This document shows, piece after piece, positions 1,493-19,281 of a stretch of DNA of 19,281 nt (positions are counted from its first letter, which is position 1; each line of letters starts with the position of its first letter). The notes below the pieces were generated by a model that saw nothing but the letters and a program-made list of their open reading frames with translations, was not told where the DNA came from and made no database searches. The stretch is taken from contig NZ_JACJSG010000078.1 in the NCBI RefSeq assembly GCF_014697625.1, positions 1-19,281 of the forward strand. The letters run 5' to 3'. Both the position numbers and the translations under genes were made by a program. Source of the DNA: Anabaena azotica FACHB-119 (GTDB taxonomy: Bacteria; Cyanobacteriota; Cyanobacteriia; Cyanobacteriales; Nostocaceae).

Positions 1493-1629
1493 CATCACAA
1501 GTAATACCATTTTACTGACAACAATGAAACGGATCTAATTCTTTTAGAATAAGTTTATTCTTAGTATTTAACCTCTTAAGAAACATATTCTATAGCTTGC
1601 TTAATAGGTAAAAGCTATAAAGCAAAAGC

Positions 1630-2112
1630 TTAAAATCCTCTTGTTTTACAAAGGGCATCTATATCTTGCCACTTTTTTCCTTTTGAAAATTTAGCGGCAT
1701 CTTCCGGTGTATAGTTTTCAAATAAAACTTGATAAGCTGCTAACAATTTAATCCTTTTACCAAGTTTTGTTGATTTCTTTTGTTCTTCTGCTATTAAACA
1801 GGCAGCATAAGCATCAAAAACGGTAGATTCTGATATTTTAATTTTTTCTGTAAGAACTAAAGGATTAATTTGAAGATTAACTATCGGAGTTTTAAAAGTT
1901 GATAAATCTTTGTTGTTTTTATTTATTTGACCACCAATTTGTAGTATTGCATTCCATACTAGTTTAGGTGAATTATAGCTCTTAAAAAACTCTAAAAACT
2001 GAACATCTAAAATTGGATAGTCATTTAAAGTGACCATATAATTATCAAAATTTCCGGGACTAAAACATAGTCTTAACCCTGCCGGGTACTCTCTTAAAAG
2101 TAAGTTACACAT
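1630..2112 (-). CDS. hypothetical protein (160 aa) in the AT-rich island
   Basis: Long ORF in a very AT-rich region where stop codons are frequent, which supports real coding. Lys/Asn/Ile-rich. I recognise no domain. Confidence 0.6.
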   Translation of the reverse strand: MCNLLLREYPAGLRLCFSPGNFDNYMVTLNDYPILDVQFLEFFKSYNSPKLVWNAILQIGGQINKNNKDLSTFKTPIVNLQINPLVLTEKIKISESTVFDAYAACLIAEEQKKSTKLGKRIKLLAAYQVLFENYTPEDAAKFSKGKKWQDIDALCKTRGF

Positions 2113-2449
2113 ATATTATTCTATTAACTTATTAATATAGTTTTTATAACAAAAATTTTATAAATACATTTAGTATTTCTGCTGAATTATACTTATTTTC
2201 TTTTCTATGAAAATATTTGATAATAAGTATATTTAACTAGCAATAATCTCGAACCAGTATTTAATGGAAATGTTGAAACTAGTGCAATTTTTCTTGCCAG
2301 AGATACGTGTATAAGTTTTTGTGTTGACACTGAAATTAAAGAAAGTCTTTTTTCTACCCTGTTGGGGCTGTAATTAAAATTAAATTTTTGCTTAAAAAAA
2401 ACTATTTTTCAAGTATGTATAGATAGTGAATATTTAGTAAAGCCTTAAG

Positions 2450-3370
2450 TCAAAGATAGGTATCTCTATATTTACTTGCTATCATTTCTTTAGCTTGTGA
2501 TTTAGTCCATCTTGGAATAGGCTCCAAATCAGGAATCTTAACAAGTGAATCTGGAATAGCTTGATAAGTTATATTAAAAATCACCTTTGCAATTTCTTTA
2601 CAACATTGTTCTGGGTAACGTATAACTTGCTCTTCAGCAAATCTAATAACAATCCAGTTTAAATCTATAAAAAACTGATTTCTTTGGCATTCCTTGTATG
2701 AATCATATTCATGATAAGGATAATAAAGTCCATTACTTTGTTTTTTAAAATATGGCTCATCAATTTCAATATCAATACATAATTTATCATCTATATAACA
2801 AAAATCTGGGGTATATGGATACGAAAAATCTTCAATAGTAAAAGACTTTTTTGTATAAATTTTACCCACGAAATACTTTTTTATATAAGGCTCAAATCGA
2901 GTCTCACCTACTCCCCTAGTAACATCATTCTTAATTTGATCAGGTTTGCCTGTATTAATCAGTGTAGGATTCTTCAATATTGATTCTCTATATTTTTTTA
3001 TATTTTCATCACTTCTAATTATTTTTATAGATTGATTATAATCAATCATTTCAATTTGATATTTTTTATCTTCTTGTTCGTAGTTTCTAATTTGATTAAA
3101 ATAATCATTTTTCCTTGTAGGATATGAATAATATTGAAACGCTCCTATTATAAATGCTAATGAAATTGTAAAAATCAATAACGATACAGATTGATTTAAT
3201 AAACTAATAAAAGTACCAATAATACTTATTGCTATAAGCCATCCAGTATTAAAAGGTTGAGGCTCTGGCATTGGTTTAACTGGCTTATTAGGAGGATTTG
3301 GGATAGGAGGAAGTATTTGTTGAACTTTCTCAAGAACTTCAGGCATATAAATGTCAGGATATGTTCTCAT
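2450..3370 (-). CDS. membrane-anchored protein with a C-terminal DUF559/Vsr-like (PD-(D/E)xK superfamily) endonuclease-fold domain
   Basis: 306-aa ORF in the AT-rich island. There is a Pro-rich N-terminus followed by two hydrophobic helices (WLIAISIIGTFISLL, SLLIFTISLAFIIGAF). The C-terminal pattern GETRF...YTPDFCY...IDIEIDEPY...H...RNQFFIDLNWIVIRFAEEQV matches the DUF559/Vsr layout (D ... ExD ... H ... R ... GW.V.RF) by eye. Confidence 0.6.
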   Translation of the reverse strand: MRTYPDIYMPEVLEKVQQILPPIPNPPNKPVKPMPEPQPFNTGWLIAISIIGTFISLLNQSVSLLIFTISLAFIIGAFQYYSYPTRKNDYFNQIRNYEQEDKKYQIEMIDYNQSIKIIRSDENIKKYRESILKNPTLINTGKPDQIKNDVTRGVGETRFEPYIKKYFVGKIYTKKSFTIEDFSYPYTPDFCYIDDKLCIDIEIDEPYFKKQSNGLYYPYHEYDSYKECQRNQFFIDLNWIVIRFAEEQVIRYPEQCCKEIAKVIFNITYQAIPDSLVKIPDLEPIPRWTKSQAKEMIASKYRDTYL

Positions 3371-3548
3371 GTTTTCATATATATCTGGAATCCTTAAAAA
3401 TTATACTACTAATAATTATTACTTGTTTATAAGTAAACACACTTAAAAATTTCTATTAAAAGTTACATGAATGATAGTAATCATTTTAAATAAATTTAGA
3501 ACTTATAAATTCTTCCCCTACTGCACCAATTCTCCTATCCCCTGCTTT

Positions 3549-4562: not shown

Positions 4563-5057
4563 ATGGTTTATATGGAAGATGTAAATTTATGGGAGCTGCC
4601 ATTTGTGGCACTTGAAGACAGAAACTCATTGCCTGATGAACCCTGTGTTTACTTGGCAATCGATAAAGATAATTCGGTGCTGTACGTGGGTATGTCTGAG
4701 AATTTAAGGCTAAAGTGGAAAAACCATCCTAAGCTTGAAGCCTTAAGTCGTCTTGAAGGCGTAAAAATCTCGTACATTAGAACCGAAGCTGAATTACTCA
4801 GAAAGTTAGAGAATGCCTTAATCAAAGTGTTCAAACCGCCGTTGAACCAAACGGAAGCACCTAAAAGAGGTATTGCAGCTTTAAGAGAAAAAATGGGTTT
4901 AACTCAGAAACAATTAGGTGATTTAGTTGGAGTTGACACTTCAACAATTAGAAATTGGGAATATGGCAAAGGAGCAGAAACTTTTGCAAAAGTAGCAAGG
5001 CTGTGTAAAGTGCTTGAATGTGATGTAGAAGATTTGTTTGAGGAAGAAGCAGTTTGA
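4563..5057 (+). CDS. GIY-YIG nuclease-domain protein fused to a C-terminal XRE-family helix-turn-helix
   Basis: N-terminus CVYLAIDKDNSVLYVGMSENLRLKWKNH ... LENALIKVFKPPLN fits the GIY-(10)-YIG ... (R/K) ... H ... E ... N layout. C-terminus LREKMGLTQKQLGDLVGVDTSTIRNWEYGK is a typical XRE HTH. Confidence 0.8.
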   Translation: MVYMEDVNLWELPFVALEDRNSLPDEPCVYLAIDKDNSVLYVGMSENLRLKWKNHPKLEALSRLEGVKISYIRTEAELLRKLENALIKVFKPPLNQTEAPKRGIAALREKMGLTQKQLGDLVGVDTSTIRNWEYGKGAETFAKVARLCKVLECDVEDLFEEEAV

Positions 5058-6444: not shown

Positions 6445-6618
6445 CTTATGCCCACACCCAACTGTAACAAGAGATCCAAAAGATACCGCACAGTTTGATT
6501 AGTAAAGTAATCGCAAAATTTCTAGTAATTACTATAAGCTACTGCGTTCTTAAGTTGATAAATAGCTATCATTACGTAAGCCTGAGCAGATTTAATCAAT
6601 AGAACTAGGTCTAGCACG

Positions 6619-6644
6619 GAATGGCACTAAGAAAAGCTAAAAGC
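6619..6644. repeat. IS terminal inverted repeat (left)
   Basis: gaatggcactaagaaaagctaaaagc. Its reverse complement occurs at 8186-8211 with one mismatch. Confidence 0.8.
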
Positions 6645-6652
6645 CTTACCAA

Positions 6653-8019
6653 TTAAGCGGTTTGTAATTGTTTACGTAATTCATGCCGGGGCTTAGTCAT
6701 TAAGGGGTAAACCTTGGGGCGGCGTTTACGGACTCGTGGCTCAGTTCTAGCTGGGCGATCGCTCACAGGTTTGTGAACAATAACTTTGAGTAAACTACGA
6801 TAAAGTTTCTGGCGTTTTTTAGAGTGAGCGTCCTCGAATTTGGGAATAAAATTTAGTAAATGATGGCGAGTACCTTGTAAAGATAAGCGTAAGGGAGGAG
6901 TATTATAAGTATTCCCTGCCTCGAACATTAAGCTACGAAGTAAATTGTAAGCGAGTAAATAAACATGAATTTCCTTACGTACCATTGCTGGGGTTTTACA
7001 TCGTAAAACATCCATTCCTAAAGTAGTTTTTAAATGTCTTAAATCTAGTTCAACATCCCAACGTTTATAATAAAGTCCAACTATTTCTAGGGTAGGATAA
7101 ATAGTTTTATCCAATAAAGTAGTGATGAGACTGACCCGCTCTGAGCGAAAACCAGGAATCACAACATAGTAGTAAATTTCACGTACAGTTATGGAAGGAG
7201 GTAAAGCTAAAAATTCGTCCTTGCTTAATCCTTGTGGGCATCTTTTAGGTTTGTACCAAGTAACTAACTTGTCACAATCACCAACTATTTTACCTTTTCG
7301 CATGGTTGTTGTGCGAGATTGATGCTTACGAAAAACTGCATCACAGCCGAGTTGAGTAATAGAGAACATATCAGCGTAAGCACAAAAGGCTCTGTCCCCT
7401 AAAAGTACATCATTAGGTTTTAGAAAACTGTACAACTTCCTGGCTAATTTAATATCATGAGTATTCAGAACGTCGATACACAAAGCAATTGCGGCTCCAG
7501 TTACTAAACTAAATATCACCCCAATTTTGGCTATTGGAAAGCCACATCCCTCTTTTGGCTACTAGCTTGGGGATATTCTTTTTGATTTTCAACAGTATCA
7601 GGCATAGAAACAGTCGAGCCATCAATTACTTTGACATTTCGACCACACCAGAACTTTTCATGAGTTACTTTCTCTTCTAAATTTCGTGCCGAGTCATTAA
7701 AAAGTTTTGCCAGTAATTTCTCTGGTAGTCTTGACCGTGCTTGGCAGTATGCACTTGTATCTGTTGACGGAACTTCTACCTCTTTTTCTGCCAAATGTGC
7801 AATTATTTTACTCACAGCATTATGACAAGTTTTATCACTGTCTAGAACCTGAGTTAAAAACGCCCATAAAGTCACCACTGGGTCAAATAACCGCTTTTTA
7901 TATTTGATTTTTAGCTCAGATATTGCTTGGTTAATTGCTGATTCTGGCAGCAATTCTTTAAAAGGTAGCCCCAGACCCTGGCTAAATTTATCCTTGAGAA
8001 TTTGTACTCTTAATGTCAC
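6653..8019 (-). pseudogene. IS4-family DDE transposase split into two frames (162 aa + 288 aa)
   Basis: The N-terminal ORF carries DGSTVSMPDTVENQKEYPQ. The C-terminal ORF carries LLGDRAF and the YKRWDVELDLRHLK (Y-R-E-K) signature. The second frame is open from 7558 and reads PKEGCGFPIAKIGVIFSL, so the break is a single -1 shift at ccaaaagagg (~7550-7560). Confidence 0.75.
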
Positions 8020-8185
8020 AGTAGTGTTTATGGTGTTAGCTTATTCGTCTCAACAAAAGTATTTCACGGACGAGTAAGCTTTTTCTACTAACAAAATTTT
8101 TGGGCAACCTTACATAGTGCGATCGCTTGCATCATACCATTACTGCACTCTCTGGCATTAAAAGCTGTAGCCCTTGTTGTGCATT

Positions 8186-8211
8186 GCTTGTAGCTTTTCT
8201 TAGTGCCATTC
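8186..8211. repeat. IS terminal inverted repeat (right)
   Basis: gcttgtagcttttcttagtgccattc, the reverse complement of 6619-6644 except for one position. Confidence 0.8.
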
Positions 8212-8374
8212 ACCCCAGTGGAGAAGTCATCCAAGAAGTCGGAAGCGGACTCAACTTCCGAAGAAAAAAGTTACTGGCCATAAAGGTGCAGATGCGGTTC
8301 GCATTGAGACTTATATTCGGCGGTGGTGGCTGTGGGTGAATTGTGGGGTGTTTTTGGGTTGCTGGGGTGCGGAG

Positions 8375-8406
8375 GTTCGGTGCGTTAACGAAGTAATGCA
8401 CCGAAC
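8375..8406 (-). terminator. weak terminator-like hairpin after the toxin gene
   Basis: 9-bp stem gttcggtgc / gcaccgaac with a 14-nt loop, 18 nt beyond the stop at 8424. There is no U-tract, so support is low. Confidence 0.25.
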
Positions 8407-8423
8407 TTGATCAGGCGATCGCA

Positions 8424-10907
8424 CTAATTATTACTAAACTTCACTATCCAGTTGTTCATCATCCCGGTCATATTTACTTGCTGTTCTAGGTCAGTTACTA
8501 TTACATATCTGGGCGGATTTTTGGTTATCTGGACAGCCTCCCGACTTTTCACTGGAATTTCTTCCTCTCCGAACATCGGTGTCATCTCGAACTGCCCTCC
8601 GTCGTGGTCATCTGCTTCAGTTATGTTTCTCACTCTGTCACTTATGTCACGTGCTGTATTATAGCTGAATCTCTCGGTCAGCTTGTCCTCCTCCATTTGT
8701 GTTGATGCTTGATAGTCGGGAGCTGACTGATTGAAACTTATATCCCATTGGTCTCTCCATGCGGTCTGTTGCTCATTTAGCCTTTCCACGGTCGATAGTG
8801 TAAACAAATATGGCTCCAAGCTTCGTGCTTCTTGAATTGTTATCTTGAGGTCTTCCGCCCAGCTTTTTGCTGTCACAAGATGAGCTATTGCATCAACTAG
8901 TTTCGTTTCTTTTTCCCTCGCCATGTCCAACTCCTTTTTGATCAAATCTGTCGATAGTGGAGCCAAGACTGATGGATCTTTCATCTTTGTTATTTCCCCG
9001 GCAACGTCCAATAATTCCAGGGCAATTTCTCCCGCTGCTACTCTGAGCAGCCTTGCCAGTTCTTTATCTATGATCTCTTGATTCTCGGATAATAGCTTTT
9101 CTGCTATTTGTTTTGGTTCGCCAACATCTGGAAAAGTTTTGACCAGTAGGCTGATAATATCCTCTTTGCTTACACTACTACTTGGCGACCACTGCACACC
9201 AATTAGCTGGCGCTCATTAAAGTTTACTCTCATAGATGGACCCCCGACTTGCTGTACTTGTGTTACAGGTACAACCGCATCTTGAATCTCAACTCCAAAT
9301 GGTTGCCCTAATGTTGGTGACATGGTGCCATGCTGTCGTGTTGTCGGTGCCATCGTACCAGTTGTCCAAGCTGTCATATGCCATTTCGTTGGTATCCTTC
9401 TTGGTATGGTAATAGCTGTGTTCAGATATATCGCGTCGTATTTCGGTTTATTGGAGATAACTGGTCGTTTCACCAAATCGGCTATTGTTAGTTGATAATC
9501 AGACGGGTATGTCAGGTCAACTTTGACACATACCTCAGAACCGCTCCGTGCCGTCTCTTTGATCTGATTTTCTGTAGCTGAGTAAACTGGTGTATTAAAT
9601 TGAGAAACTTGAGGTGCCAGGTTATAATATTGAAAGCTATTTGTAGTACCCGCAATTAGTTGATCGCCAATTAAGTGACCAGCATCATAAAACTTTTGTA
9701 AATCAACTCCTTGGAGCAGGTATTGCTCTGCTCGTGCCATAGCCGTCACAACTGATAATTCAGTCGCCTTCTCCCGTTCACCCTCCCTGATGGAGCGAGC
9801 ATCTACTAAGGCTGTAATAGATTTTGGACGCTCATAATTACCTAATCGTCTTGCAGTGGTTCCAGGCAGAAGTTGTTCTTTTAGAGGAACATTCGTGGCC
9901 TTTCTTATTGCTTCTGCTGGAGTGGGTAACGGATCGGATTGAATATCAACAAATTTTCGCTGTATGGTTGACAGATTCTGCGCTTGTGATGCAGTTTTGG
10001 CTACCTTCACCTGTGGCTGATGCGATCGCTCTACTGTCTCCCCTTTCTGCTGCACAACATGAGTCAACTCATGAGCCAACAACTCCTGCCCCCCTCGACT
10101 CCCCGGCTGATACGCCCCCTGCCGAAAGAACACATCCTGCCCAGTGGTAAATGCCTTCGCCTGTATCGACTGATTCAACTGGTCAGCCTGAGAATCCGTA
10201 TGCACGCGCACGCCACTAAAGTCAGCCCCAAACGCCTGCTCCATCGGTTCTCTAATGCTGTCGGCTAAGGGCTGTCCACCACCTCTAGCCCGTTGTATCC
10301 CCGCTTCGACATCTGGGGATGCTGCCATGCCACCGTCAGCCACACGCTGCACTATCGGCTTCATCTGTAATTCTTCTTCTTCGGACGACTGGTGCTGAAT
10401 ATTATCTACTGGCTTGGTTTGCAATTCCTCTTCTTCAGTTACAGTCTCTCGTTGAACTGGCTGATTTGGTGGCTGATGAATCCGTTGCACTACTTGAGTT
10501 GCGGTTTCGTCTGCTTGTTGCTCATACTTATCCCCAGGTTGCCCGATGGTGAGCTTGGCTTGTATTGGGGGTGATGCGTTGGGTCTACTAAACGCAATTC
10601 TATTAATGTTATGCCCATACGTAGCAGCATTTTCTAACCGCGTCTGCAATAATCCGTCCATCTTGGCTTGCAGCAGGGTTAAACGTTCTTGTCCCTGTGG
10701 CGTAATCGTGCCAAACTTCGCCTGTAGCTCCAATCCTGTAGCTTCCATCTTTTGTTCGGCAAAGGCGGCATCTTCCTTTTGCTGCTGTGTGCTGATGCTT
10801 TGTGTTTGGATACCAAACGGTCTAGACGCAAACTGTGATGATGTTTGGGATATTTGAGAATTACTGAAGGTGGGGCTTGCTTGTTTTTGAGTTTTTTGTG
10901 GAGGCAT
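8424..10907 (-). CDS. DUF4157 (zincin-like HExxH) polymorphic-toxin-type protein with an internal Endonuclease_NS_2-like His-Me nuclease domain and an unknown C-terminal extension
   Basis: 827-aa ORF. DUF4157 hallmarks are present: LTIGQPGDKYEQQADETATQVVQRI, two EEEELQxKP repeats, GGGQPLADSIREPMEQAFGADFSGVRVHTDSQA...AFTTGQDVFFRQGAYQP...LLAHELTHVVQQ. HELTH is at 10059-10073. The central segment FYDAGHLIGDQL...YYNLAPQVSQFN...ATENQIKE...VCVKVDLTYP matches the (D/R)GHLI...NL.PQ...N...E pattern (GH at 9675-9680). Residues ~530-827 carry nothing I recognise. Confidence 0.85.
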   Translation of the reverse strand: MPPQKTQKQASPTFSNSQISQTSSQFASRPFGIQTQSISTQQQKEDAAFAEQKMEATGLELQAKFGTITPQGQERLTLLQAKMDGLLQTRLENAATYGHNINRIAFSRPNASPPIQAKLTIGQPGDKYEQQADETATQVVQRIHQPPNQPVQRETVTEEEELQTKPVDNIQHQSSEEEELQMKPIVQRVADGGMAASPDVEAGIQRARGGGQPLADSIREPMEQAFGADFSGVRVHTDSQADQLNQSIQAKAFTTGQDVFFRQGAYQPGSRGGQELLAHELTHVVQQKGETVERSHQPQVKVAKTASQAQNLSTIQRKFVDIQSDPLPTPAEAIRKATNVPLKEQLLPGTTARRLGNYERPKSITALVDARSIREGEREKATELSVVTAMARAEQYLLQGVDLQKFYDAGHLIGDQLIAGTTNSFQYYNLAPQVSQFNTPVYSATENQIKETARSGSEVCVKVDLTYPSDYQLTIADLVKRPVISNKPKYDAIYLNTAITIPRRIPTKWHMTAWTTGTMAPTTRQHGTMSPTLGQPFGVEIQDAVVPVTQVQQVGGPSMRVNFNERQLIGVQWSPSSSVSKEDIISLLVKTFPDVGEPKQIAEKLLSENQEIIDKELARLLRVAAGEIALELLDVAGEITKMKDPSVLAPLSTDLIKKELDMAREKETKLVDAIAHLVTAKSWAEDLKITIQEARSLEPYLFTLSTVERLNEQQTAWRDQWDISFNQSAPDYQASTQMEEDKLTERFSYNTARDISDRVRNITEADDHDGGQFEMTPMFGEEEIPVKSREAVQITKNPPRYVIVTDLEQQVNMTGMMNNWIVKFSNN

Positions 10908-11442
10908 ATTTCACCCTGTGTTTGTTACTGTTAGATTCCACTTAACCGCACACTTGTTAAATTCAGCATGAATACTTACTGTATCCAAACTCAAGAGTTG
11001 CTGGGGGCAAATGCCCAATGTACACTCAACCTCACTGATAATTGATAAAAGCTTACCCAAGTACAGCAATATCAATGTTTTCGATATCCAACACAGAAGG
11101 AAATCAATTAAAAATTTGTGACAGATTAGGACACACTATCGGTACAAAATGCTATCAAATCAATGATAAGAATAGTATCAATAACTTAGGGTAAAAGATA
11201 GCCTTTGAGTCAGGTGGTTAATAATCTGTAAATATACTGCTGTTAATTTGCTATCTACACCTCAGCAGCCTCCGTCATTTATTTGTACTTAGTTGCTCAA
11301 TTTATCTGGTGCAATGTGCGGTGGACTATGCCCTGGCTTGTTGCGATTGCCTTGACAATGACCCCTGGCGAGAAGAGGTTAGCCTAGCGATTGGAGGAGA
11401 AATTAAAGGATGATTATTTGCTGTAATATAACGTGCCAGTAG

Positions 11443-11929
11443 GGAAAAACGGTTGCCGGAAGACAAAGGACTGTGCCAGATTTAATCAAATTGCCCAGTT
11501 TTAAGCATGAGGTAGAATACTTACTTAGTCGAGCGGGTGCAACAATTGCATGAGCGAGATATAGCTTGGAACGAAATGGCAATTATCTACCGCTCGAAGT
11601 TCACGGGCAATCACATCTACCAGGATTTCCAGAAACTGAGAATACCTGTTGAATTAGTCAATGCCAACAATGACAGCCGCAACTATCACCCAGACGAACA
11701 AAGCATTAAACTCATAACCATGTTTTCATCCAAAGGGCTAGAGTTTCCAGTAGTGCTTATCCCCAGCATTGGCTTCATGCCCCATCAATACAATACACCC
11801 GAAGAGGAAGCGCGGCTGCTGTATGTGGGGATGACACGGGCAATTGATCAGCTAATTATGACCTGCGATCGCAAGAGTGGATTTACTGAGCGTTTGGAGG
11901 CGGTGTTGGGGAAGGTGGCAGTTAGATAA
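11443..11929 (+). pseudogene. 3' remnant of a UvrD/PcrA-type SF1 helicase
   Basis: ORF 11537-11929 carries the C-terminal helicase motifs (ITMFSSKGLEFPVVLIP, EEARLLYVGMTRAIDQLIMT) but is only 130 aa. Another frame upstream (11443-11538) reads GKTVAGRQRTVPDLIKLPSFKHEVEYLLSRAG. That plausibly continues the same protein across a frameshift near 11533-11538. No N-terminal ATPase domain is present. Confidence 0.65.
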
Positions 11930-12114
11930 TGAGGCTGAAGTGTGAGCGATCAGCGAGGCTGGGCGCTTTGCGCCATCGCGCAGCGTTTCCACCTGCTTTT
12001 GGCACAACAGTCTCTCGATATAATAGTGGTGAATTATATCAGCTTACTAAGCACCTTTTGACGTGAGGTCGGGCATTGGCGATCGCTATGTCGATGACTT
12101 GGCTTGCGCCTACG

Positions 12115-12169
12115 CTACCAAAACAAAACTAGACGGTATAGTTTGCCCCTGATGACAGCCTCGCCAGTT
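12115..12169. repeat. ~55-bp direct repeat, copy 1
   Basis: ctaccaaaacaaaactagacggtatagtttgcccctgatgacagcctcgccagtt. It recurs at 12273-12329 with a few substitutions and indels. Confidence 0.8.
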
Positions 12170-12272
12170 CTAAGTCTACTGCTTGAGCGTCTTGCTGTAG
12201 CTAATTAGCTATCTCTTTTATCAACAGGGCATACTCGTTGATTATTTTACTTTTATAGGAAATGTGCGATGT

Positions 12273-12329
12273 CTACCCAAAACAAAACTAGACGGTATAG
12301 TTTGCCCCTGGTGACAGCTCCCGCCAGTT
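12273..12329. repeat. ~55-bp direct repeat, copy 2
   Basis: ctacccaaaacaaaactagacggtatagtttgcccctggtgacagctcccgccagtt. Same orientation as copy 1, 158 bp downstream of it. Confidence 0.8.
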
Positions 12330-12336
12330 ATACCTC

Positions 12337-12382
12337 AAGGAGCGATCGCGTACTGCGCCCACGCCAAGAGCGATCGCTCCTT
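12337..12382. repeat. 13-bp inverted repeat built from two HIP1 sites
   Basis: aaggagcgatcgc (12337-12349) and gcgatcgctcctt (12370-12382) are perfect complements separated by 20 nt. Confidence 0.7.
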
Positions 12383-12682
12383 GCTGATGTATACCAGTGA
12401 GGGCGAATTAGTCGGTGCAGAGATTTTTGGAGTTGCCTGGAAGCTGAACCGAGCTTATTGACTGTGCTGGAGTCAGTGAAGAGCGGCTGTTGCAATCACG
12501 CTCTTCGTTCTGGAGCCAAGGCGATGTCGATAAAGAGGCTTGCACTATCGCACCTTCAAAAATGCTGCATGGATTATGAGCCTAAAAATATTTAACTAAA
12601 GTTTTCTTCCATTAATTGCGTAGTTTAGAATAAAAACCATGTAGTAACAGTAAAATATGATGCTGAATTGCAGGGGTAGTAG

Positions 12683-13123
12683 ATGGAGCCATTAACTGCG
12701 GGTGCGATCGCTATTGGTACTATAGTTGCTACCAAAGCTTTAGAGAAAACAACAGAAAAGGGAACAGAATTTTTATTGGATAAAGCTGGGAAGTTTTTAG
12801 TGACCTTGAAAAAACACTCCCCCAATACTGTAGTTGCGATTGAGAAAGCACCCCAAGAACCACTCGATTACGGTAAAGCTGTACTGGAAGTAGAATCTGC
12901 GGCTAAGGACAATCCTGAACTGGCTCAAGCTGCACAGGAATTGGCAACAGCAGCACAAACTAATCCACCATCAAACTTGGCGGAAATTTTGAGGGAGATA
13001 AAAGCATCTATAGAAAAATCGCAACAATCATACCCAACAAGTTTTATTCAAAACATTGAAAAAGCGATTAATGCAGCGCAGACACAAACCATTGATCAAA
13101 GAGGAAGTACCTTTAATATTTGA
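12683..13123 (+). CDS. 146-aa all-helical N-terminal (effector- or adaptor-like) module of the NLR locus, ending at an in-frame TGA
   Basis: ATG 12683 follows AGGGGTAG. The N-terminal Gly/Ala-rich hydrophobic helix is LTAGAIAIGTIVATKALEK, and the rest is predicted helical by composition. The stop TGA at 13121-13123 is in the same frame as the downstream NB-ARC ORF. Confidence 0.7.
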   Translation: MEPLTAGAIAIGTIVATKALEKTTEKGTEFLLDKAGKFLVTLKKHSPNTVVAIEKAPQEPLDYGKAVLEVESAAKDNPELAQAAQELATAAQTNPPSNLAEILREIKASIEKSQQSYPTSFIQNIEKAINAAQTQTIDQRGSTFNI

Positions 13124-13237
13124 CTACAGTCGCCCGAACGGGAACGGGTAAAGTCAAATCCCCCACAAAATATTCCTCCCAGCAATACAAATGAATTTGT
13201 TGGAAGAGAAACAGAATTAAAACGCCTCCACCAAGAG

Positions 13238-16200
13238 TTGCAACGCAATGATTCGGTGATAATTGCTGCTGTAGAAGGGATGGGGGGAGTTGGGAAAACA
13301 GAATTGGCAATCCGTTATTCACTGCTACATTGGCAGTTGAGCAATTACCCTGGCGGTATTTGCTGGTTAAGAGCAAGAGAAGAAGAAATTGGTTCACAAA
13401 TAATACAATTTGCGATAACAGACTTGGGCTTGCAACCGCCAGAAGATTTGGAATTACAACAACAAGTACGTTGGTGCTGGCAACGTTGGCGGCAGGGTGA
13501 CACGCTAATAGTTCTTGATGATGTTACAAATTACAGTCACATCGAACCGTATTTACCACCTCAAGCATCCCAATTCAAAGTACTAATTACTACACGCCTC
13601 AAACTAGATTTAGCTAGTTCTCTGCTTTTGTCAGTTTTGTCAGAAAAAGACGCACTCTTGTTACTAGCTCAATTGATTGGTGAAGAAAAGCGAAATCAAG
13701 AATTAGGACAAGCTGAAGAACTTTGTCAGAGGTTAGGCTATTTGCCCTTAGCTTTACAATTAGTTGGCTGTTATGTCAAGAAACGCAAGTTAACTTTAGC
13801 CGAAATGCTGCGACGGTTAGAAGAAAAAGGGTTAGGTCATCCTTCCTTAATCGTGAAGGAAAATGACTCAACTTGGACTAGAAACGTCAAACTTGGAGTA
13901 GCGGCGGCTTTTGAATTGAGTTGGTTAGACTTAAGTGATGATGCTCAACAGTTGGGTTGTTTGCTGAGTTTATTTGCTAATGCTCCCATTCCTTGGTCGT
14001 TGGTGGTAGGTGCTACATCTGAGCAAGACCCTGAAGAATTAGAAGATGCCAGAGTTGAACTAGAAAATTTGCACTTACTACAGGGTGAAGAAAATTATCA
14101 ATTACATCAACTAATTCGTGAGTTTTTGAGAGGCAAGCAAAACAACTTAGTTACAGCATCCGAGCAGAAGTATAATTTCTGTCGAGCAATGGTAGAAGTG
14201 GCAAAGACTATTCCTGATTCACTAACTCAAAAGTTTATTAATTCACTGAAAGAAGCTATTCCACATTTGGCAGAGGTCGCGCAAAATTTGACTGATGCAG
14301 TTAATGATGAAGATTTAATTTTGGTTTTTAATAGTTTAGATAGATTTTATTCGGAACAGGGTTTGTATGCGCTTGCTCAACCCTGGTGTGAGCAATGTGT
14401 ATCAGTAATAGAATCCCGTTTAGGACAACAGCATCCTCATGTTGCCGTCAGTTACAATAATCTTGCGAGACTCTACTGTTCTCTAGGACGGTATACCGAA
14501 GCTGAACCACTCTTTGTCAAGGCACTGGAACTAAGGCAGAACCTATTAGGGGAGTCACATCCTCATGTCGCCGCCAGTTATAACAACCTAGCAGGACTCT
14601 ACTGTTCTTTAGGACGGTATACCGAAGCTGAACTACTCTTTGTCAAGGCACTAGAACTAAGGCAAAGCCTGCTGGGAGAATTGCATCCTGATGTCGCCGC
14701 CAGTTACAACAATCTAGCCGAACTTTATCGCTCTCAAGGAAGGTATACGGAAGCTGAACCACTTTTTGTCAAGGCACTGGAAGTAGAACAAAGGTTGATA
14801 GGAAAATCACATCCTCATGTCGCCACCAATTACAACAACTTAGCTAATCTCTACTATTCTCAAGGACGGTACATGGAGTCCGAATCTTTGTACGTCATGG
14901 CATTAGAATTACGACAAAGCCTGCTGGGAGAGTCACATCCTGATGTCGCCGCCAGTTACAACAACTTAGCTAATCTCTACTATTCTCAAGGACGATATAC
15001 AGAAGCTGAACCACTGTTTGTCAAAGCCTTAGAACTAAGACAACGCTTGTTCGGAAAGTCACATCCTCATGTCGCCATTAATTACAACACCCTAGCGAAC
15101 CTTTATCGTTCCCAAGGACGATACTCGGAGGCTAAAACTTTGTACATCAAGGCATTGGAACTAAGGCAAAGCCTGCTGGGAGAATTGCATCCTCATGTTG
15201 CCACCAGTTATAACAGCCTTGGACAACTCTATTGTTCTCAAGGACGATACACAGAAGCTGAACCACTTACGGTCAAGGCACTGGAACTAAGGCAGAACCT
15301 ATTGGGGGAGTTACATCCTGATGTTGCCACCAGTTATAACGACCTTGGACAACTCTATTGTTCTCAAGGACGATACACAGAAGCTGAACCACTTACGGTC
15401 AAGGCACTGGAACTAAGGCAGAACCTATTAGGGAAGTTACATCCTGATGTTGCCACCAGTTATGACAACCTTGCAGCACTATACTATCGGCAAGGACGAT
15501 ACACAGAAGCTGAACCACTTACGGTCAAGGCACTGGAACTAAGGCAAAACCTATTGGGGGAATCGCATCCTCATGTTGCCACCAGTTATAACAGCCTTGG
15601 ACAACTCTATAGTTCTCAAGGACGGTATACAGAAGCTGAACCACTCTTTGTCAAGGCACTGGAACTAAGGCAAAACCTATTGGGGGAGTTACATCCTGAT
15701 GTTGCCACCAGTTATAACGGCCTTGCAGCACTATACTATTGGCAAGGACGGTACGCAGAAGCTGAACCACTCTTTGTCAAGGCACTGGAACTAAGGCAAA
15801 GCCTATTGGGGGAATTACATCCTGATGTTGCCACCAGTTATGACAACCTTGCAGGACTATACTATTCTCAAGGACGGTATACAGAAGCTGAACCACTTAC
15901 GGTCAAGGCGTTGGAACTAAGGCAGAACCTACTGGGGGAGTTGCACCCTGATATCGCTACCAGTTATAACAACCTTGCAGGACTATACTATTCTCAAGGA
16001 CGGTATACGGAAGCTGAACTACTTTTAATCAAGGCACTGGAACTAAGGCAAAGCCTGCTGGGAGAATTGCATCCTGATGTCGCAGCCATTTATAACGATC
16101 TTGCAGGATTATACTATTCTCAAGGACGGTATACGGAAGCTGAACCTTTGTTTCACCAAGCATTAAAAATTTATGAGCAAAAGTTAGGTGAGGGTCATCC

Positions 16201-16285
16201 AAAAACAATAATGCTTAGAAAAAATTATGCAGATAGTTTACGTAATTATGTATTTTTTTTAAGGAATAAACGAAGTAACTGTTAG
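13238..16285 (+). CDS. NB-ARC (STAND NTPase) - TPR repeat protein (bacterial NLR-like); true N-terminus uncertain
   Basis: NB-ARC motifs: Walker A GMGGVGKT (13277-13300), Walker B LIVLDDV, KVLITTR, GYLPLALQLVG, and the MHD-like LHQLIREF. About 15 TPR units of 42 aa follow. The frame is open back to 13124 and encodes NEFVGRETELKRLHQEL before the only candidate start, TTG at 13238. There is no in-frame ATG or GTG in 13124-13237. Confidence 0.85.
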   Translation: MQRNDSVIIAAVEGMGGVGKTELAIRYSLLHWQLSNYPGGICWLRAREEEIGSQIIQFAITDLGLQPPEDLELQQQVRWCWQRWRQGDTLIVLDDVTNYSHIEPYLPPQASQFKVLITTRLKLDLASSLLLSVLSEKDALLLLAQLIGEEKRNQELGQAEELCQRLGYLPLALQLVGCYVKKRKLTLAEMLRRLEEKGLGHPSLIVKENDSTWTRNVKLGVAAAFELSWLDLSDDAQQLGCLLSLFANAPIPWSLVVGATSEQDPEELEDARVELENLHLLQGEENYQLHQLIREFLRGKQNNLVTASEQKYNFCRAMVEVAKTIPDSLTQKFINSLKEAIPHLAEVAQNLTDAVNDEDLILVFNSLDRFYSEQGLYALAQPWCEQCVSVIESRLGQQHPHVAVSYNNLARLYCSLGRYTEAEPLFVKALELRQNLLGESHPHVAASYNNLAGLYCSLGRYTEAELLFVKALELRQSLLGELHPDVAASYNNLAELYRSQGRYTEAEPLFVKALEVEQRLIGKSHPHVATNYNNLANLYYSQGRYMESESLYVMALELRQSLLGESHPDVAASYNNLANLYYSQGRYTEAEPLFVKALELRQRLFGKSHPHVAINYNTLANLYRSQGRYSEAKTLYIKALELRQSLLGELHPHVATSYNSLGQLYCSQGRYTEAEPLTVKALELRQNLLGELHPDVATSYNDLGQLYCSQGRYTEAEPLTVKALELRQNLLGKLHPDVATSYDNLAALYYRQGRYTEAEPLTVKALELRQNLLGESHPHVATSYNSLGQLYSSQGRYTEAEPLFVKALELRQNLLGELHPDVATSYNGLAALYYWQGRYAEAEPLFVKALELRQSLLGELHPDVATSYDNLAGLYYSQGRYTEAEPLTVKALELRQNLLGELHPDIATSYNNLAGLYYSQGRYTEAELLLIKALELRQSLLGELHPDVAAIYNDLAGLYYSQGRYTEAEPLFHQALKIYEQKLGEGHPKTIMLRKNYADSLRNYVFFLRNKRSNC
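14432..16195 (+). repeat. 14 tandem, near-identical 126-bp (42-aa TPR) coding repeats
   Basis: Unit consensus is HP(H/D)VA.SYN.LA.LY.SQGRYTEAEPL.VKALELRQ.LLGE. The period is exactly 126 nt starting at 14432. Adjacent units, for example 15188-15313 and 15314-15439, differ at only about 5 positions. Confidence 0.9.
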
Positions 16286-16375: not shown

Positions 16376-16586
16376 CCAAACTCACCCCATCCACGCCATC
16401 CAATCAGGAGACTTCGCAGTCAACTCCTCAAACATCTCCGGCTGTGCCTCATCAATTGCCATCATCACGCCCCAGCGCTCATCACTGCTGAGGGTACTGA
16501 GGAACTGTTTGACTGCATCAACCCCATGAGCTACCCGTTCCATAGCAAGCGTTGCATAATATTTCACCTGCCCCCACCATGAATCA
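16376..16586. repeat. ~210-bp dispersed direct repeat, copy A (3' ends of the paralogous genes)
   Basis: It aligns with 18148-18358 at high identity, including a ~55-nt identical run (tcgcagtcaactcctcaaacatctccggctgtgcctcatcaattgccatcatcac). Confidence 0.8.
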
Positions 16587-17404
16587 ACTGCATTGTCTTG
16601 TCCACCATCCCCCAAGCTATGACCTTCATCTTGATTAATGGGTAGGTTAGACAGTGATGATGTGTCACCAAGGGGTATTTTGATATCTATATTATTAGTG
16701 ACTGACACAGAACAATTCGCAATTCGCAATTCGCAATTCGCAATTTTTTCATCCGAGAGTTCGTCCCGGCTAAACCACTTCTTAAAAATTACATCCCGCC
16801 CATCATCAGGCGCAACAAACTTGTAGACACTCTCCCGCTTCCCCCTCGGCCCCAACCGACCAACATACGACAACCGCAAATCGATTTTGTTGAGTAACTT
16901 TTGTGCGATCGCCACAGGTGTCAACTTCTCGCTAACGGTCACATTCAGATAGTTCTTGATAACCACCCGATTCGCCACCGCAGCCCGTTTCAACTCTTGC
17001 ATAGCCTCGTCAGAACCCCTAACCTGCTTATCAGCCTGGAGTAACTGCAACAAGTTCAACTTTTCCAACAACCACACAGCACTCATTAGCTGACCCTTGT
17101 TGAAGTCGGGTTTCCAAATACAGTTTTCCCCAGCTTCAGCCTGTCCAAGCGCCCGTTTGCTGTCCCGCTTAGTCAAAAACTGCCGTCCCAGCGTGAGGTA
17201 ATAGTGCAGCCGCAGTTGGGGATACCAACCGTCATCATCCTTTTCCACCAAATCAGGCGTAACCTCAACCTCATATCGCCGGGACAACTCCGCTTTGCGC
17301 TGCTGATGCCGTTCGGCGGGAGTCTTCGCACGTTGATTTTGCAACTTCTTGAGTTGGGTATCAGTCAGGTCATTAGCGTTAGCGATCGCCCGACGCGGGA
17401 GCAA
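16382..17404 (-). CDS. 5'-truncated paralogue of the C-terminal region of a large plasmid-type protein (possibly CyRepA-like replication protein; tentative)
   Basis: 340-aa ORF starting at a TTG immediately after an in-frame stop. It aligns with the neighbouring copy from RRAIANANDL (vs RQVANAKDI), through TPDLVEKDDDG, to a nearly identical last ~65 aa (WWGQVKYYATLAMERVAHGVDAVKQFL...PDWMAWMG). The functional assignment is from memory only. Confidence 0.6.
   Translation of the reverse strand: MLPRRAIANANDLTDTQLKKLQNQRAKTPAERHQQRKAELSRRYEVEVTPDLVEKDDDGWYPQLRLHYYLTLGRQFLTKRDSKRALGQAEAGENCIWKPDFNKGQLMSAVWLLEKLNLLQLLQADKQVRGSDEAMQELKRAAVANRVVIKNYLNVTVSEKLTPVAIAQKLLNKIDLRLSYVGRLGPRGKRESVYKFVAPDDGRDVIFKKWFSRDELSDEKIANCELRIANCSVSVTNNIDIKIPLGDTSSLSNLPINQDEGHSLGDGGQDNAVDSWWGQVKYYATLAMERVAHGVDAVKQFLSTLSSDERWGVMMAIDEAQPEMFEELTAKSPDWMAWMG
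16713..16745. repeat. heptanucleotide tandem repeat (caattcg x ~4.7) inside a CDS
   Basis: caattcg repeats at 16713, 16720, 16727 and 16734, with a partial copy at 16741. It encodes IANCELRIANC on the minus strand. This resembles cyanobacterial STRR-type heptamer repeats. Confidence 0.85.
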
Positions 17405-17410
17405 CTACTT

Positions 17411-17887
17411 TCAGGCTTTTCTAAACAGTTTGGATACAACTGCTTTGAGAATATATGGTAGTAGCTTCGGAGCAGGAAAGAAAACAATCCCTAACTGCTG
17501 CATCAATCCGAGTGCATCGCCAAGCCCCCAATGCTCTACAATCTTTCCATCCTCGACTCGATCGATGTGCATGATCGACAAATTGATTTGTTTACCTGTT
17601 GGTGGAAGACCTTGAAATTCTCCAATATGTGTGGCGGTGAATCTTCCATGTGTTACAACCCTATCGCCGGAAACAATAACCTCATCAAAAATGTGTTGTC
17701 CCTGACCGAAGGCTAAATAAAATGACATCCCAAACTGCTTAAACCCTGCTCCGTCTAATGGCTGTGCTATACCCGCTAGATGAGCAACAAAGTTTGGAGC
17801 CAAAAGCTCTAAGGCTTGCTCGATTTTGCGCTCGTCAAAAGCTTTGTAGAACTGGAGAACAAGGTCTTTGTTTTGTTCAGTCAGCAT
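17411..17887 (-). CDS. SnoaL-like / ester cyclase family (NTF2-fold) protein
   Basis: 158 aa. NKDLVLQFYKAFDERKIEQALELLAPNFVAH...GDRVVTHGRFTATHIGEFQGLPPTGKQINLSIMHIDRVEDGKIVEHWGLGDALGLMQQLG matches the SnoaL-like polyketide/ester cyclase pattern. Confidence 0.75.
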   Translation of the reverse strand: MLTEQNKDLVLQFYKAFDERKIEQALELLAPNFVAHLAGIAQPLDGAGFKQFGMSFYLAFGQGQHIFDEVIVSGDRVVTHGRFTATHIGEFQGLPPTGKQINLSIMHIDRVEDGKIVEHWGLGDALGLMQQLGIVFFPAPKLLPYILKAVVSKLFRKA

Positions 17888-18147
17888 ACAGAATTTCGTT
17901 TTGAACTAGATTGTAACGCGGTAATTACGAGAACTTAACAGGTCTTTCTAGCCGACTTGAAAACACTACCTCAGCCATCACATTCAAAACACGCTGGCTT
18001 TATGCAGTATTACACATTAGAACCATTAGGTGTAAGATTTGCTCTGCGGTTTTAGTTTTGTATTATTTTAACTTACAAGAGTGCGTTCGTCTCTGACGTT
18101 GCCTTTGGCATCGCCTCTCTTGAAGCCGCATACATCGCCTTCAACCC

Positions 18148-18358
18148 CAAAACTCACCCCATCCAAGCCATCCAATCAGGAGCCGTCGCAGTCAACTCCT
18201 CAAACATCTCCGGCTGTGCCTCATCAATTGCCATCATCACCCCCCATCTTTCATCACTACTGAGGGTGAAGAGGAACTGTTTGACCGAATCTACCCCATG
18301 CGCTACCCGTTCCATTGCAAGCGTTGCATAAAATTTTACCTGCTGCCACCAAGAATCA
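18148..18358. repeat. ~210-bp dispersed direct repeat, copy B
   Basis: Counterpart of 16376-16586, in the same orientation. Confidence 0.8.
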
Positions 18359-19281
18359 CAGGGGTCAAGCTGTCCGTCCACACCCCCGCAATTATTATTC
18401 CCAATTATATTAGAGGGGGGGTTGGACGGAGCATTAACTCCATACATAGCCTGCATCCTAGCCGCATACGCCGCCTGCGCTTCTCGTTCCTCCTGTCGCC
18501 TCTTTTCTCGTTCATCCCTCAGTCGTTGCCGATACCCCAATACCTTCCGAACAAACGCTACATCCTCAGTGCTTAAGCGGTAATATCTCACCCGCTTACC
18601 ATCTTCCACAGGCCGCCGCGACTTCATAGACAAAGCAAACTGCGAAAGATACTGACTCAAAATCCACACAGGGGACTCATCAAGCGGAATAGTCAAATTC
18701 AGGATACCTTTAATATGGTTAGCATTGCGTTTGGAGAAATCAGCCAACGCCTCAATAGTTGCCTCATCCCCTTTAATCTCCAACCCATCCATTAAATCAG
18801 TCAATATCGCCCTTAGTCCCAATCGCTGACGCATCAACCAGGATGTGGAGTGATTGCCCCAGTCGGTACAGATAGATAAGCGATCGCGTTCCCCCTTATC
18901 GCGTTCCGCCACCACATCCGGCGGCGTAATAAACTCCCGCCCATGCTCATCAGTAATCATTTCCCCCGGCGCTGCTAAGATGGCTTCAAGCGCGACAATC
19001 TTTTTGATGAGCCGTCCCCCATCATCCTTCTCGACCAACTCAGGCGTGACAGTCATGCCGTAAGTATCACGAATACGAAACTTCTCGCACTCTAGGGCTT
19101 CTTCTGGTTTAAGATAATCCTGGTGTTGCCTTGCGTCGTAAGTTTTCCTATCGATGTCCTTGGCATTGGCAACCTGACGATAATGCTCAGAATCGATAGC
19201 ATTTCCCGCCGCCTTCATCAAATGCCGTGCGGCTTCATCCGTATTATCGCCGGCTGAGACAATGGTGTTGCCCATCTCAAC
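18154..19281 (-). CDS. C-terminal part of a large plasmid-type protein (possibly CyRepA-like), 5' end beyond the window
   Basis: The frame stays open to base 19281. It is a paralogue of 16382-17404 with a near-identical C-terminal ~65 aa. The middle region differs (ICTDWGNHSTSWLMRQRLGLRAIL...). Confidence 0.75.
   Translation of the reverse strand, partial: VEMGNTIVSAGDNTDEAARHLMKAAGNAIDSEHYRQVANAKDIDRKTYDARQHQDYLKPEEALECEKFRIRDTYGMTVTPELVEKDDGGRLIKKIVALEAILAAPGEMITDEHGREFITPPDVVAERDKGERDRLSICTDWGNHSTSWLMRQRLGLRAILTDLMDGLEIKGDEATIEALADFSKRNANHIKGILNLTIPLDESPVWILSQYLSQFALSMKSRRPVEDGKRVRYYRLSTEDVAFVRKVLGYRQRLRDEREKRRQEEREAQAAYAARMQAMYGVNAPSNPPSNIIGNNNCGGVDGQLDPCDSWWQQVKFYATLAMERVAHGVDSVKQFLFTLSSDERWGVMMAIDEAQPEMFEELTATAPDWMAWMG

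Follow-up and report, generated by a model that had tools for sequence, protein, structure and literature searches.

A DUF4157-tagged nuclease protein of Anabaena azotica FACHB-119 as a probable plasmid-borne cargo of a cyanobacterial contractile injection system

Introduction

DUF4157 is a core domain of extracellular contractile injection systems (eCISs) and is found N-terminal to toxins (PMC8213781). In Anabaena PCC 7120, a thylakoid-anchored contractile injection system (tCIS; CIS without the prefix is used for contractile injection systems in general) has been described with the DUF4157 proteins Alr3311 and Alr3312 as putative effectors (PMC8894136). This study deals with an 827-amino-acid (aa) DUF4157 protein of Anabaena azotica FACHB-119, encoded on the draft contig NZ_JACJSG010000078.1, the entire 19,281 bp of which are referred to here as the window. 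The gene (8424-10907, minus strand; stop codon 8424-8426), defined from the list of open reading frames (ORFs) and its translation, is the largest central ORF of the window and is probably a plasmid-borne gene for a cargo (effector) of a cyanobacterial phage-tail-like CIS, located away from the structural operon.

The closest described proteins are Cgo1 and Cgo2 of AlgoCIS and the eCIS-associated toxins (EATs) of Geller et al. 2021, which have the same disordered N-terminal domain (NTD), DUF4157 domain with an HExxH motif, and variable C-terminal effector as the window protein. In Cgo1 and Cgo2, the disordered NTD is required for loading, and DUF4157 is dispensable for it (bioRxiv 10.64898/2026.05.27.728243). 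Danov et al. 2024 treated DUF4157 alone as sufficient, with proximity to the operon typical and not obligatory; 88% of the EATs in their training set were located within ten genes of the operon. Compared with the EATs, which are also often without an adjacent immunity gene, the window gene lies on a plasmid-like contig that has no CIS gene, and its cargo is a His-Me nuclease followed by a tail of approximately 300 aa. Alr3311 and Alr3312, compared here by their description, are DUF4157 proteins of the same cyanobacterial order that are presumed to be loaded in the tube lumen; unlike the window gene, their genes adjoin the structural cluster.

With respect to its nuclease part, the protein is comparable with the sugar-non-specific nucleases, namely Serratia nuclease, Anabaena NucA (with its inhibitor NuiA), EndA, and EndoG, and with the EsaD/EssD-type nuclease toxins of type VII secretion systems (T7SSs). 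A T7SS delivers EsaD, with EsaE as its chaperone and EsaG as its immunity protein.

Results and Discussion

Three Pfam matches, judged by gathering scores and all exceeding them, define the domains of the 827-aa protein: eCIS_core/DUF4157 (PF13699) at aa 213-290 (E = 6.4e-35; 119.6 bits, cut-off 22), Endonuclea_NS_2 (PF13930) at aa 405-473 (E = 1.1e-9; 39.1 bits, cut-off 27), and Endonuclease_NS (PF01223; E = 2.4e-6; 27.8 bits, cut-off 23). As sequence matches, all three are far beyond chance. The protein is 100% identical to the NCBI entry "eCIS core domain-containing protein [Anabaena azotica]"; a scan against NCBIfam gave no family, and the Pfam scan detected no other known trafficking domain and no T7SS-associated domain. 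The zincin-like DUF4157 domain (10038-10271, minus strand) has an intact HExxH motif, HELTH, at aa 279-283, the codons of which were checked at 10059-10073. The nuclease motifs YDAGH (aa 407-411, ending at H411), NLAPQ (from aa 429), and QFN (from aa 436) follow, with YDAGH starting 128 residues beyond HELTH. An earlier interpretation made from the letters alone (the sequence-only reading) had described a DUF4157 protein carrying a NucA-like beta-beta-alpha-Me nuclease approximately 130 residues past the HExxH motif; the motifs that it quoted are located where it placed them, and the DUF4157 and Endonuclea_NS_2 profiles that it named are both matched significantly.

The N-terminal region (aa 1-212; 10272-10907, minus strand), delimited by its composition and its relatives, is rich in Q, S, and E and contains TIGQPGDKYEQQADE from aa 120 and two EEEELQxKP repeats, the EEEELQ of which is at aa 158 and 176. 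By a rough composition proxy, disorder-promoting residues account for 63-70% of aa 1-212 and for 49% of the cargo. Hundreds of cyanobacterial DUF4157 proteins have 47-73% identity to this region, and the first approximately 300 aa recur at up to 73% identity in more than 5,000 proteins, most of them from Nostoc and other cyanobacteria. These relatives continue into many different C-terminal Pfam domains, the accessions of which we take to be those of EndoU, M91 peptidase, NucA_NucB, ADP-ribosyltransferases, ParB-like, and calpain domains. Inversely, the homologue P0002 has a clearly different DUF4157 head joined to the same cargo at 59% identity, with the shared part starting at a (T/V)IQRKF motif. 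In the window protein, this module junction is TIQRKF at aa 314-319 (9951-9968, minus strand), as located by the alignment of nine cargo homologues, and its Q316 and R317 are invariant in all nine, including those without DUF4157. As different cargos occur on one head and the head is swapped in P0002, the head and cargo are, on these sequence comparisons, independently exchangeable modules, and such exchange is the hallmark of polymorphic toxins. The arrangement of a low-complexity NTD, DUF4157, and a variable, exchanged C-terminal effector was thus found in the 827-aa protein by sequence comparison.

A short motif consisting of a hydrophobic residue, Q, and R, K, A, T, or M recurs in the N-terminal region (aa 115-118, 151-154, 162-165, 180-183, 186-189, and 204-207) and is also found at the module junction (aa 314-319). 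The tripeptide [VILMA]Q[RK] was found within 120 aa beyond HExxH in 94 of 100 relatives, mostly at +4, where approximately 17% would be expected by chance on a rough estimate. The recurring motif may be a processing or recognition site. The N-terminal sequence MPPQK also opens the distant homologue P0128.

The linkage of such heads to CIS genes was evaluated in 76 cyanobacterial loci encoding relatives of aa 1-319, which were fetched and their ORFs clustered, with representatives checked by Pfam. CIS structural genes within 10 kb were present in over half of these loci (at least one in 43/76, at least two in 32/76), and Nostocales CIS clusters with adjacent relatives of the window head were found among them. 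The recurrent neighbour families included the Phage_T4_gp19 tube, CIS_tube, the Phage_base_V/GPD spike, GPW_gp25, and PAAR, as well as AAA+WHD, sheath, Pvc16_N, and Baseplate_J families. At locus L036, a 47%-identical relative directly follows a Cis15-type AAA gene, which is the canonical cargo position, and aa 99-295 of the window head share 50-68% identity with proteins whose genes are part of CIS clusters.

For the cargo, too, an association with CIS genes was seen in other genomes. The cargo homologue P0124 has eCIS_core, AAA, and CIS_TMP genes 1.4 kb away, and P0002 has a Pvc16_N gene 0.9 kb away. Fusion to eCIS_core was seen in 22 of 59 diverse members of the nuclease family and fusion to a different pre-toxin domain in just one, and the members P0199 and P0177 are encoded beside baseplate and WHD+AAA genes.

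Several observations weigh against assigning the gene to a CIS. No sheath, tube, baseplate, spike, AAA-Cis15, or secretion gene was found among the ORFs of the window, although this absence says little, as the window is the whole of a draft contig. The 14 closest relatives (L009-L022), which match from residue 1 at 56-73% identity, have no CIS gene within 10 kb in any case (0/14). A sheath search returned many Nostocales, and A. azotica was not among the 120 matches or the cluster members listed, which does not amount to a negative result. The first approximately 98 aa of the dispersed subclass, which are unmatched in most CIS-adjacent relatives, may reflect a different delivery route for this subclass. 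In addition, since DUF4157 is dispensable for AlgoCIS loading, the domain is a marker and not a mechanism, and the gene may not be expressed, as it is flanked by an insertion sequence (IS) and a truncated gene.

The dispersed state is shared widely. The homologues P0022 and P0060 are located on Nostoc chromosomes far from CIS genes, and the Massilia homologue P0125 is likewise remote from them; some close relatives are on plasmids, 24 plasmid records hold relatives, and one of these, a closed Nostoc plasmid of 31.7 kb, encodes a relative with 69% identity and lacks CIS genes. As all 14 closest relatives, P0022, P0060, and the copy on the closed plasmid are dispersed, the distance from the machinery is a property of the subclass. 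The sequence-only reading had regarded the lack of machinery within about 8 kb on either side as unusual; the absence in the window is real, and its unusualness did not stand, since the window is the whole contig and the closest relatives are likewise dispersed.

An alternative is a polymorphic nuclease toxin that does not use a CIS and leaves the cell by lysis or another export route, in the manner of a bacteriocin, with the DUF4157 head of this dispersed subclass serving only as a self-processing or releasing peptidase. The remoteness of the 14 relatives, P0022, P0060, and P0125 from CIS genes, the extra N-terminal segment of the subclass, and the closed Nostoc plasmid are in favor of such a toxin. 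However, the identity of aa 99-295 to proteins inside CIS clusters, the repeated fusion of the cargo and wider nuclease family to eCIS_core or their location beside CIS genes, and the lack of any other known trafficking domain in the protein according to Pfam argue against it, and we regard this explanation as unlikely.

Two further observations concern the dispersed genes. The extra N-terminal approximately 98 aa (10614-10907), common to the closest, dispersed relatives, hold a predicted helical stretch, FAEQKMEATGLELQAKFGTITPQGQERLTLLQAKMDGLL, and most CIS-adjacent relatives match the window protein only from approximately aa 99. Additionally, several of the dispersed relatives share a syntenic chromosomal hot spot in Nostoc spp. 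(L012, L013, L014, and L088, at approximately 6500-16000), in which two AAA_35 genes lie upstream of the DUF4157 toxin gene and a RecQ-like helicase gene and a Uma2 gene lie downstream of it; the C-terminal domain of the toxin differs between genomes, which makes it a cargo-swapping site far from CIS clusters.

For a CIS-delivered cargo, the following course can be proposed. By analogy with AlgoCIS Cgo1 and Cgo2, aa 1-212 would most likely be the loading sequence recognized by the AAA+ ATPase of a CIS that this strain is presumed to encode, and the HExxH zincin-like domain at aa 213-290 would act as an accessory or processing domain. After the QR(K)F junction, the 514-aa toxin module would consist of a His-Me nuclease core, then a beta-sandwich and a helical tail. 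Once injected, the nuclease would degrade the nucleic acids of the target cell and would thereby be toxic to it.

Concerning the nuclease, the domain was assigned to aa 314-528 (9324-9968, minus strand), with its beta-beta-alpha-Me core at approximately aa 400-473, from PF13930, PF01223, the alignment to EndA, and the AlphaFold2 and Foldseek results. A profile of the 59 diverse family members gave EndA (PDB 3OWV) as its best PDB profile match (E = 0.014). In the 3OWV alignment, GGHLIG stands at the mutated catalytic-His site, the Asn of FN at +31, and a Glu at +14 from this Asn; we take these positions to be H160, N191, and E205 of EndA, with which the spacings agree. In the profile alignment, H411 (9675-9677), N438 (9594-9596), and E446 (9570-9572) of the window protein, all on the minus strand, align with the catalytic His, the Mg-ligand Asn, and the Glu of EndA. 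Across 73 sequences, G410, H411, Q433, and N438 show no variation, whereas N429 and E446 are almost invariant (E446 in at least 90%). The proposal of H411 as the catalytic histidine, made in the sequence-only reading together with a His-Me finger around it, therefore agrees with its position on the EndA catalytic His and its invariance, as well as with the predicted structure.

The AlphaFold2 model of the cargo, built from the 73-sequence alignment, reached a pLDDT of 89 and a pTM of 0.73 and shows a beta-beta-alpha unit over the catalytic residues, formed by two strands (model residues 94-98 and 117-121) and a helix (122-141). A Foldseek search with this model returned EndoG, Serratia nuclease, NucA-NuiA, EXOG, and the autotaxin nuclease-like domain with a probability of 1.0, E of approximately 1e-3, and TM-scores of 0.37-0.40, and the top fold match in BFVD, a viral library, is annotated as EssD-like. 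A first AlphaFold2 model, from nine sequences, had a pLDDT of 71, left the catalytic loop disordered, and gave no significant fold match; it was superseded by the 73-sequence model. Likewise, a PDB sequence search with the nine-sequence cargo profile returned nothing relevant. From the alignments and the model, the core is predicted to be a His-Me-finger (beta-beta-alpha-Me), Mg2+-dependent endonuclease non-specific for DNA or RNA, with H411 as the putative general base, N438 as the putative metal ligand, and E446 as the third predicted catalytic residue.

The likeness to the sugar-non-specific nucleases lies in this predicted fold and in the His/Asn/Glu set, although the sequence similarity is marginal, as given by the E value of the EndA match, and the TM-scores are 0.37-0.40. 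Unlike these nucleases, the window nuclease is embedded in a delivery-tagged multidomain protein, and Pfam detected no NuiA-like inhibitor gene or domain. The likeness to EsaD/EssD-type toxins lies in the Endonuclea_NS_2 family and the EssD-like BFVD match, whereas the window protein has no T7SS-associated Pfam domain, no candidate immunity gene on the 3' side, and a long conserved tail beyond the nuclease.

The 514-aa cargo was shared by only nine proteins among 5.8 billion in a word-indexed search, and an exhaustive profile search with it matched 204 clusters among 1.84 billion representatives of 50%-identity clusters, of which approximately a dozen hold the whole module. The full-length module is found at 35-39% identity from end to end in proteins of Saccharothrix, Massilia timonae, and metagenomes; the named full-module homologues belong to Cyanobacteria, Saccharothrix, and Massilia, and the tail is conserved in all of them. 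Both the nuclease core and the C-terminal approximately 300 aa are conserved, with the motifs RRIP..W, QW.P, KTFPDLG, AAG.VAL.LLD, and HL.TAK.W. Most of the 126 representative clusters with a complete nuclease domain have 130-400 residues past it; therefore, a nuclease in an internal position is normal for this family, and the placement that the sequence-only reading had singled out as unusual is not so.

The C-terminal extension (aa 529-827; 8427-9323, minus strand), recognized by its full-length conservation in approximately 12 clusters and its confidently predicted fold, comprises in the AlphaFold2 model the end of a beta-sandwich (approximately 498-572, with QW.P at 572-575), a bundle of long helices (approximately 581-747), and a small beta domain (approximately 759-825). 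No match to it was found in Pfam, in the PDB by sequence, or by fold in Foldseek, including BFVD. A fused YbjN-like immunity protein or chaperone was considered for the tail and rejected, as the profile-profile comparison gave a probability of 0.1%. The occurrence of the tail as a free-standing protein was also rejected, since the two candidates, P0146 and P0149, have the appearance of fragments; P0146, encoded on a contig of 1.7 kb, has Leu as its first residue and an overlapping upstream ORF fragment. The cargo homologue P0126 (L008, 10001-11609) ends early, at 426 aa, and a 112-aa ORF with the same orientation follows and overlaps it; P0126 probably derives from the long-tail module by a frameshift.

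Regarding immunity, no credible ORF was found 3' of the gene within the 212-bp spacer (8212-8423), which extends in the sequence from the stop codon to the end of the IS. This distance had been given correctly before, as the 26-nt inverted repeat of the element ends at 8211. An immunity gene interrupted by the IS was considered and rejected: when the IS flanks were joined in silico, nothing but a low-complexity ORF resulted, and there was no target-site duplication. In the six homologue contexts examined, no conserved gene was found downstream. The layout of a classical toxin-immunity pair, with the cognate gene immediately 3' of the toxin gene, is thus absent from this locus. Most antibacterial eCIS toxins are without identifiable immunity genes (PMC8213781); the sequence-only reading was right about the missing immunity ORF and not about its being unusual.

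A YbjN-family (PF10722) gene of approximately 155 aa was observed directly 3' of two of the three short-tail nuclease homologues examined (L090, 5801-6262; L091, 7094-7567), the two copies being 51% identical to each other. YbjN-like genes were also observed beside DUF4157 genes in cyanobacterial CIS loci (L029, approximately 18698-19141; L078, approximately 19774-20217; L065, 18380-19212; L021, approximately 9581-9886), and none was found in the window. The YbjN-family protein is a candidate immunity protein or chaperone.

The tail (approximately aa 529-827) could itself be a built-in neutralizing or latching domain that would hold the nuclease in an inactive state in the producer cell; release would come when the CIS ATPase unfolds the protein or the DUF4157 peptidase cuts it. 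We consider this idea distinctly doubtful; if true, it would explain why the long-tail subfamily has no immunity or chaperone gene.

With respect to its surroundings, the contig matches Nostoc plasmids in pieces, including CyRepA1-family replication genes (16382-19275) and copies of an IS4 element, and the description of the contig as a plasmid-like element in the sequence-only reading was confirmed by the CyRepA1 replication-protein fragments and these plasmid matches. The IS4-family element (6619-8211, minus strand) lies on the 3' side of the gene and was delimited by its 26-nt inverted repeats (6619-6644 and 8186-8211) and by Pfam (Nterm_IS4 and DDE_Tnp_1). It is approximately 80% identical to copies on several Nostoc plasmids, where it is annotated as a single "IS4 family transposase"; in the window, the transposase is interrupted and occupies two ORFs (7531-8019 and 6653-7519), and the element is therefore probably inactivated. 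On the other side, a 130-aa ORF (11537-11929, plus strand) corresponds to only the C-terminal approximately 118 aa of a candidate defence protein of the NERD+UvrD type (PADLOC C3a187; E = 6e-44), with the match covering positions 442-557 of the 559 in the profile. Its N-terminal approximately 440 aa are missing, and the upstream region of the toxin gene fills that space; the fragment is a truncation or rearrangement scar. A promoter and terminator scan around the toxin gene gave no more sites than in shuffled sequences.

Such a setting raises the question of whether the gene is an inactive relic, carried by mobile DNA on a decaying plasmid fragment and neither expressed nor used. The split IS4 transposase on one side, the truncated NERD-UvrD gene on the other, the fragmentary CyRepA1 genes, and the lack of promoter-like sites above the shuffled expectation are consistent with a relic. 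However, the 827-codon frame is fully open, and the full-length module aligns with its homologues from end to end; as the HExxH motif and all residues that are invariant in the nuclease family have been retained, a relic is very improbable.

Two defence-type genes, the NERD+UvrD fragment and an NB-ARC+TPR gene of the STAND type (13238-16285), lie within 5.4 kb, and the protein might in principle act with them as an anti-phage abortive-infection effector. Nevertheless, it matches no PADLOC model (PADLOC-DB, E <= 0.001), both neighbours are on the opposite strand and separated from the toxin gene, one of them is a truncated fragment, no operon links the toxin to the NB-ARC/TPR gene, and the neighbourhood is kept in no homologue locus examined. 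Hardly any credence can be given to such a role, and the suggestion in the sequence-only reading of a stand-alone toxin or defence effector found no support in these comparisons.

Other genes of the contig were recorded as follows. The NB-ARC protein (13238-16285, plus strand) has at least 14 TPR_12 repeats and starts right at its P-loop, GMGGVGKT. A 146-aa ORF (12683-13123, plus strand), also present on other Nostocales plasmids, lies 115 bp upstream of it, and the two may be parts of one split gene or form a two-gene system. The two paralogous CyRepA1-family ORFs (16382-17404 and 18154-19275, both minus strand) have nearly identical C-termini (...ERWGVMMAIDEAQPEMFEELTA..PDWMAWMG); a SnoaL-like gene (17411-17887) is located between them, and the second reaches the contig end. 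A small protein encoded at 4563-5057 (plus strand) has a GIY-YIG nuclease domain and, at its C-terminus, an Xre-type HTH, and its gene has approximately 90% DNA identity to "helix-turn-helix domain-containing protein" genes on Nostoc plasmids. At approximately 1500-3400, a low-GC island (27% GC against approximately 45% elsewhere in the window) encodes a DUF7004 protein (1630-2112) and a protein of 306 aa (2450-3370), the C-terminus of which weakly resembles DUF559; the island looks like recently acquired DNA.

Conclusions

Judged from its sequence, the window protein is a DUF4157-tagged, predicted CIS-delivered nuclease toxin of an already known type, in a lineage that has hundreds of DUF4157-tagged toxins. 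This study documents a rare His-Me nuclease cargo module with a conserved tail. It also provides a pair for the immunity puzzle, namely the long-tail nucleases without a partner gene and the short-tail nucleases with a YbjN-like partner; a neutralizing tail, if true, would be one answer to how immunity-less CIS toxins spare their producers. The closest Nostocales relatives are systematically dispersed in chromosomal hot spots and plasmids and not in the CIS operon. As cargo genes are dispersed in this manner, effector catalogues centred on operons would miss them.

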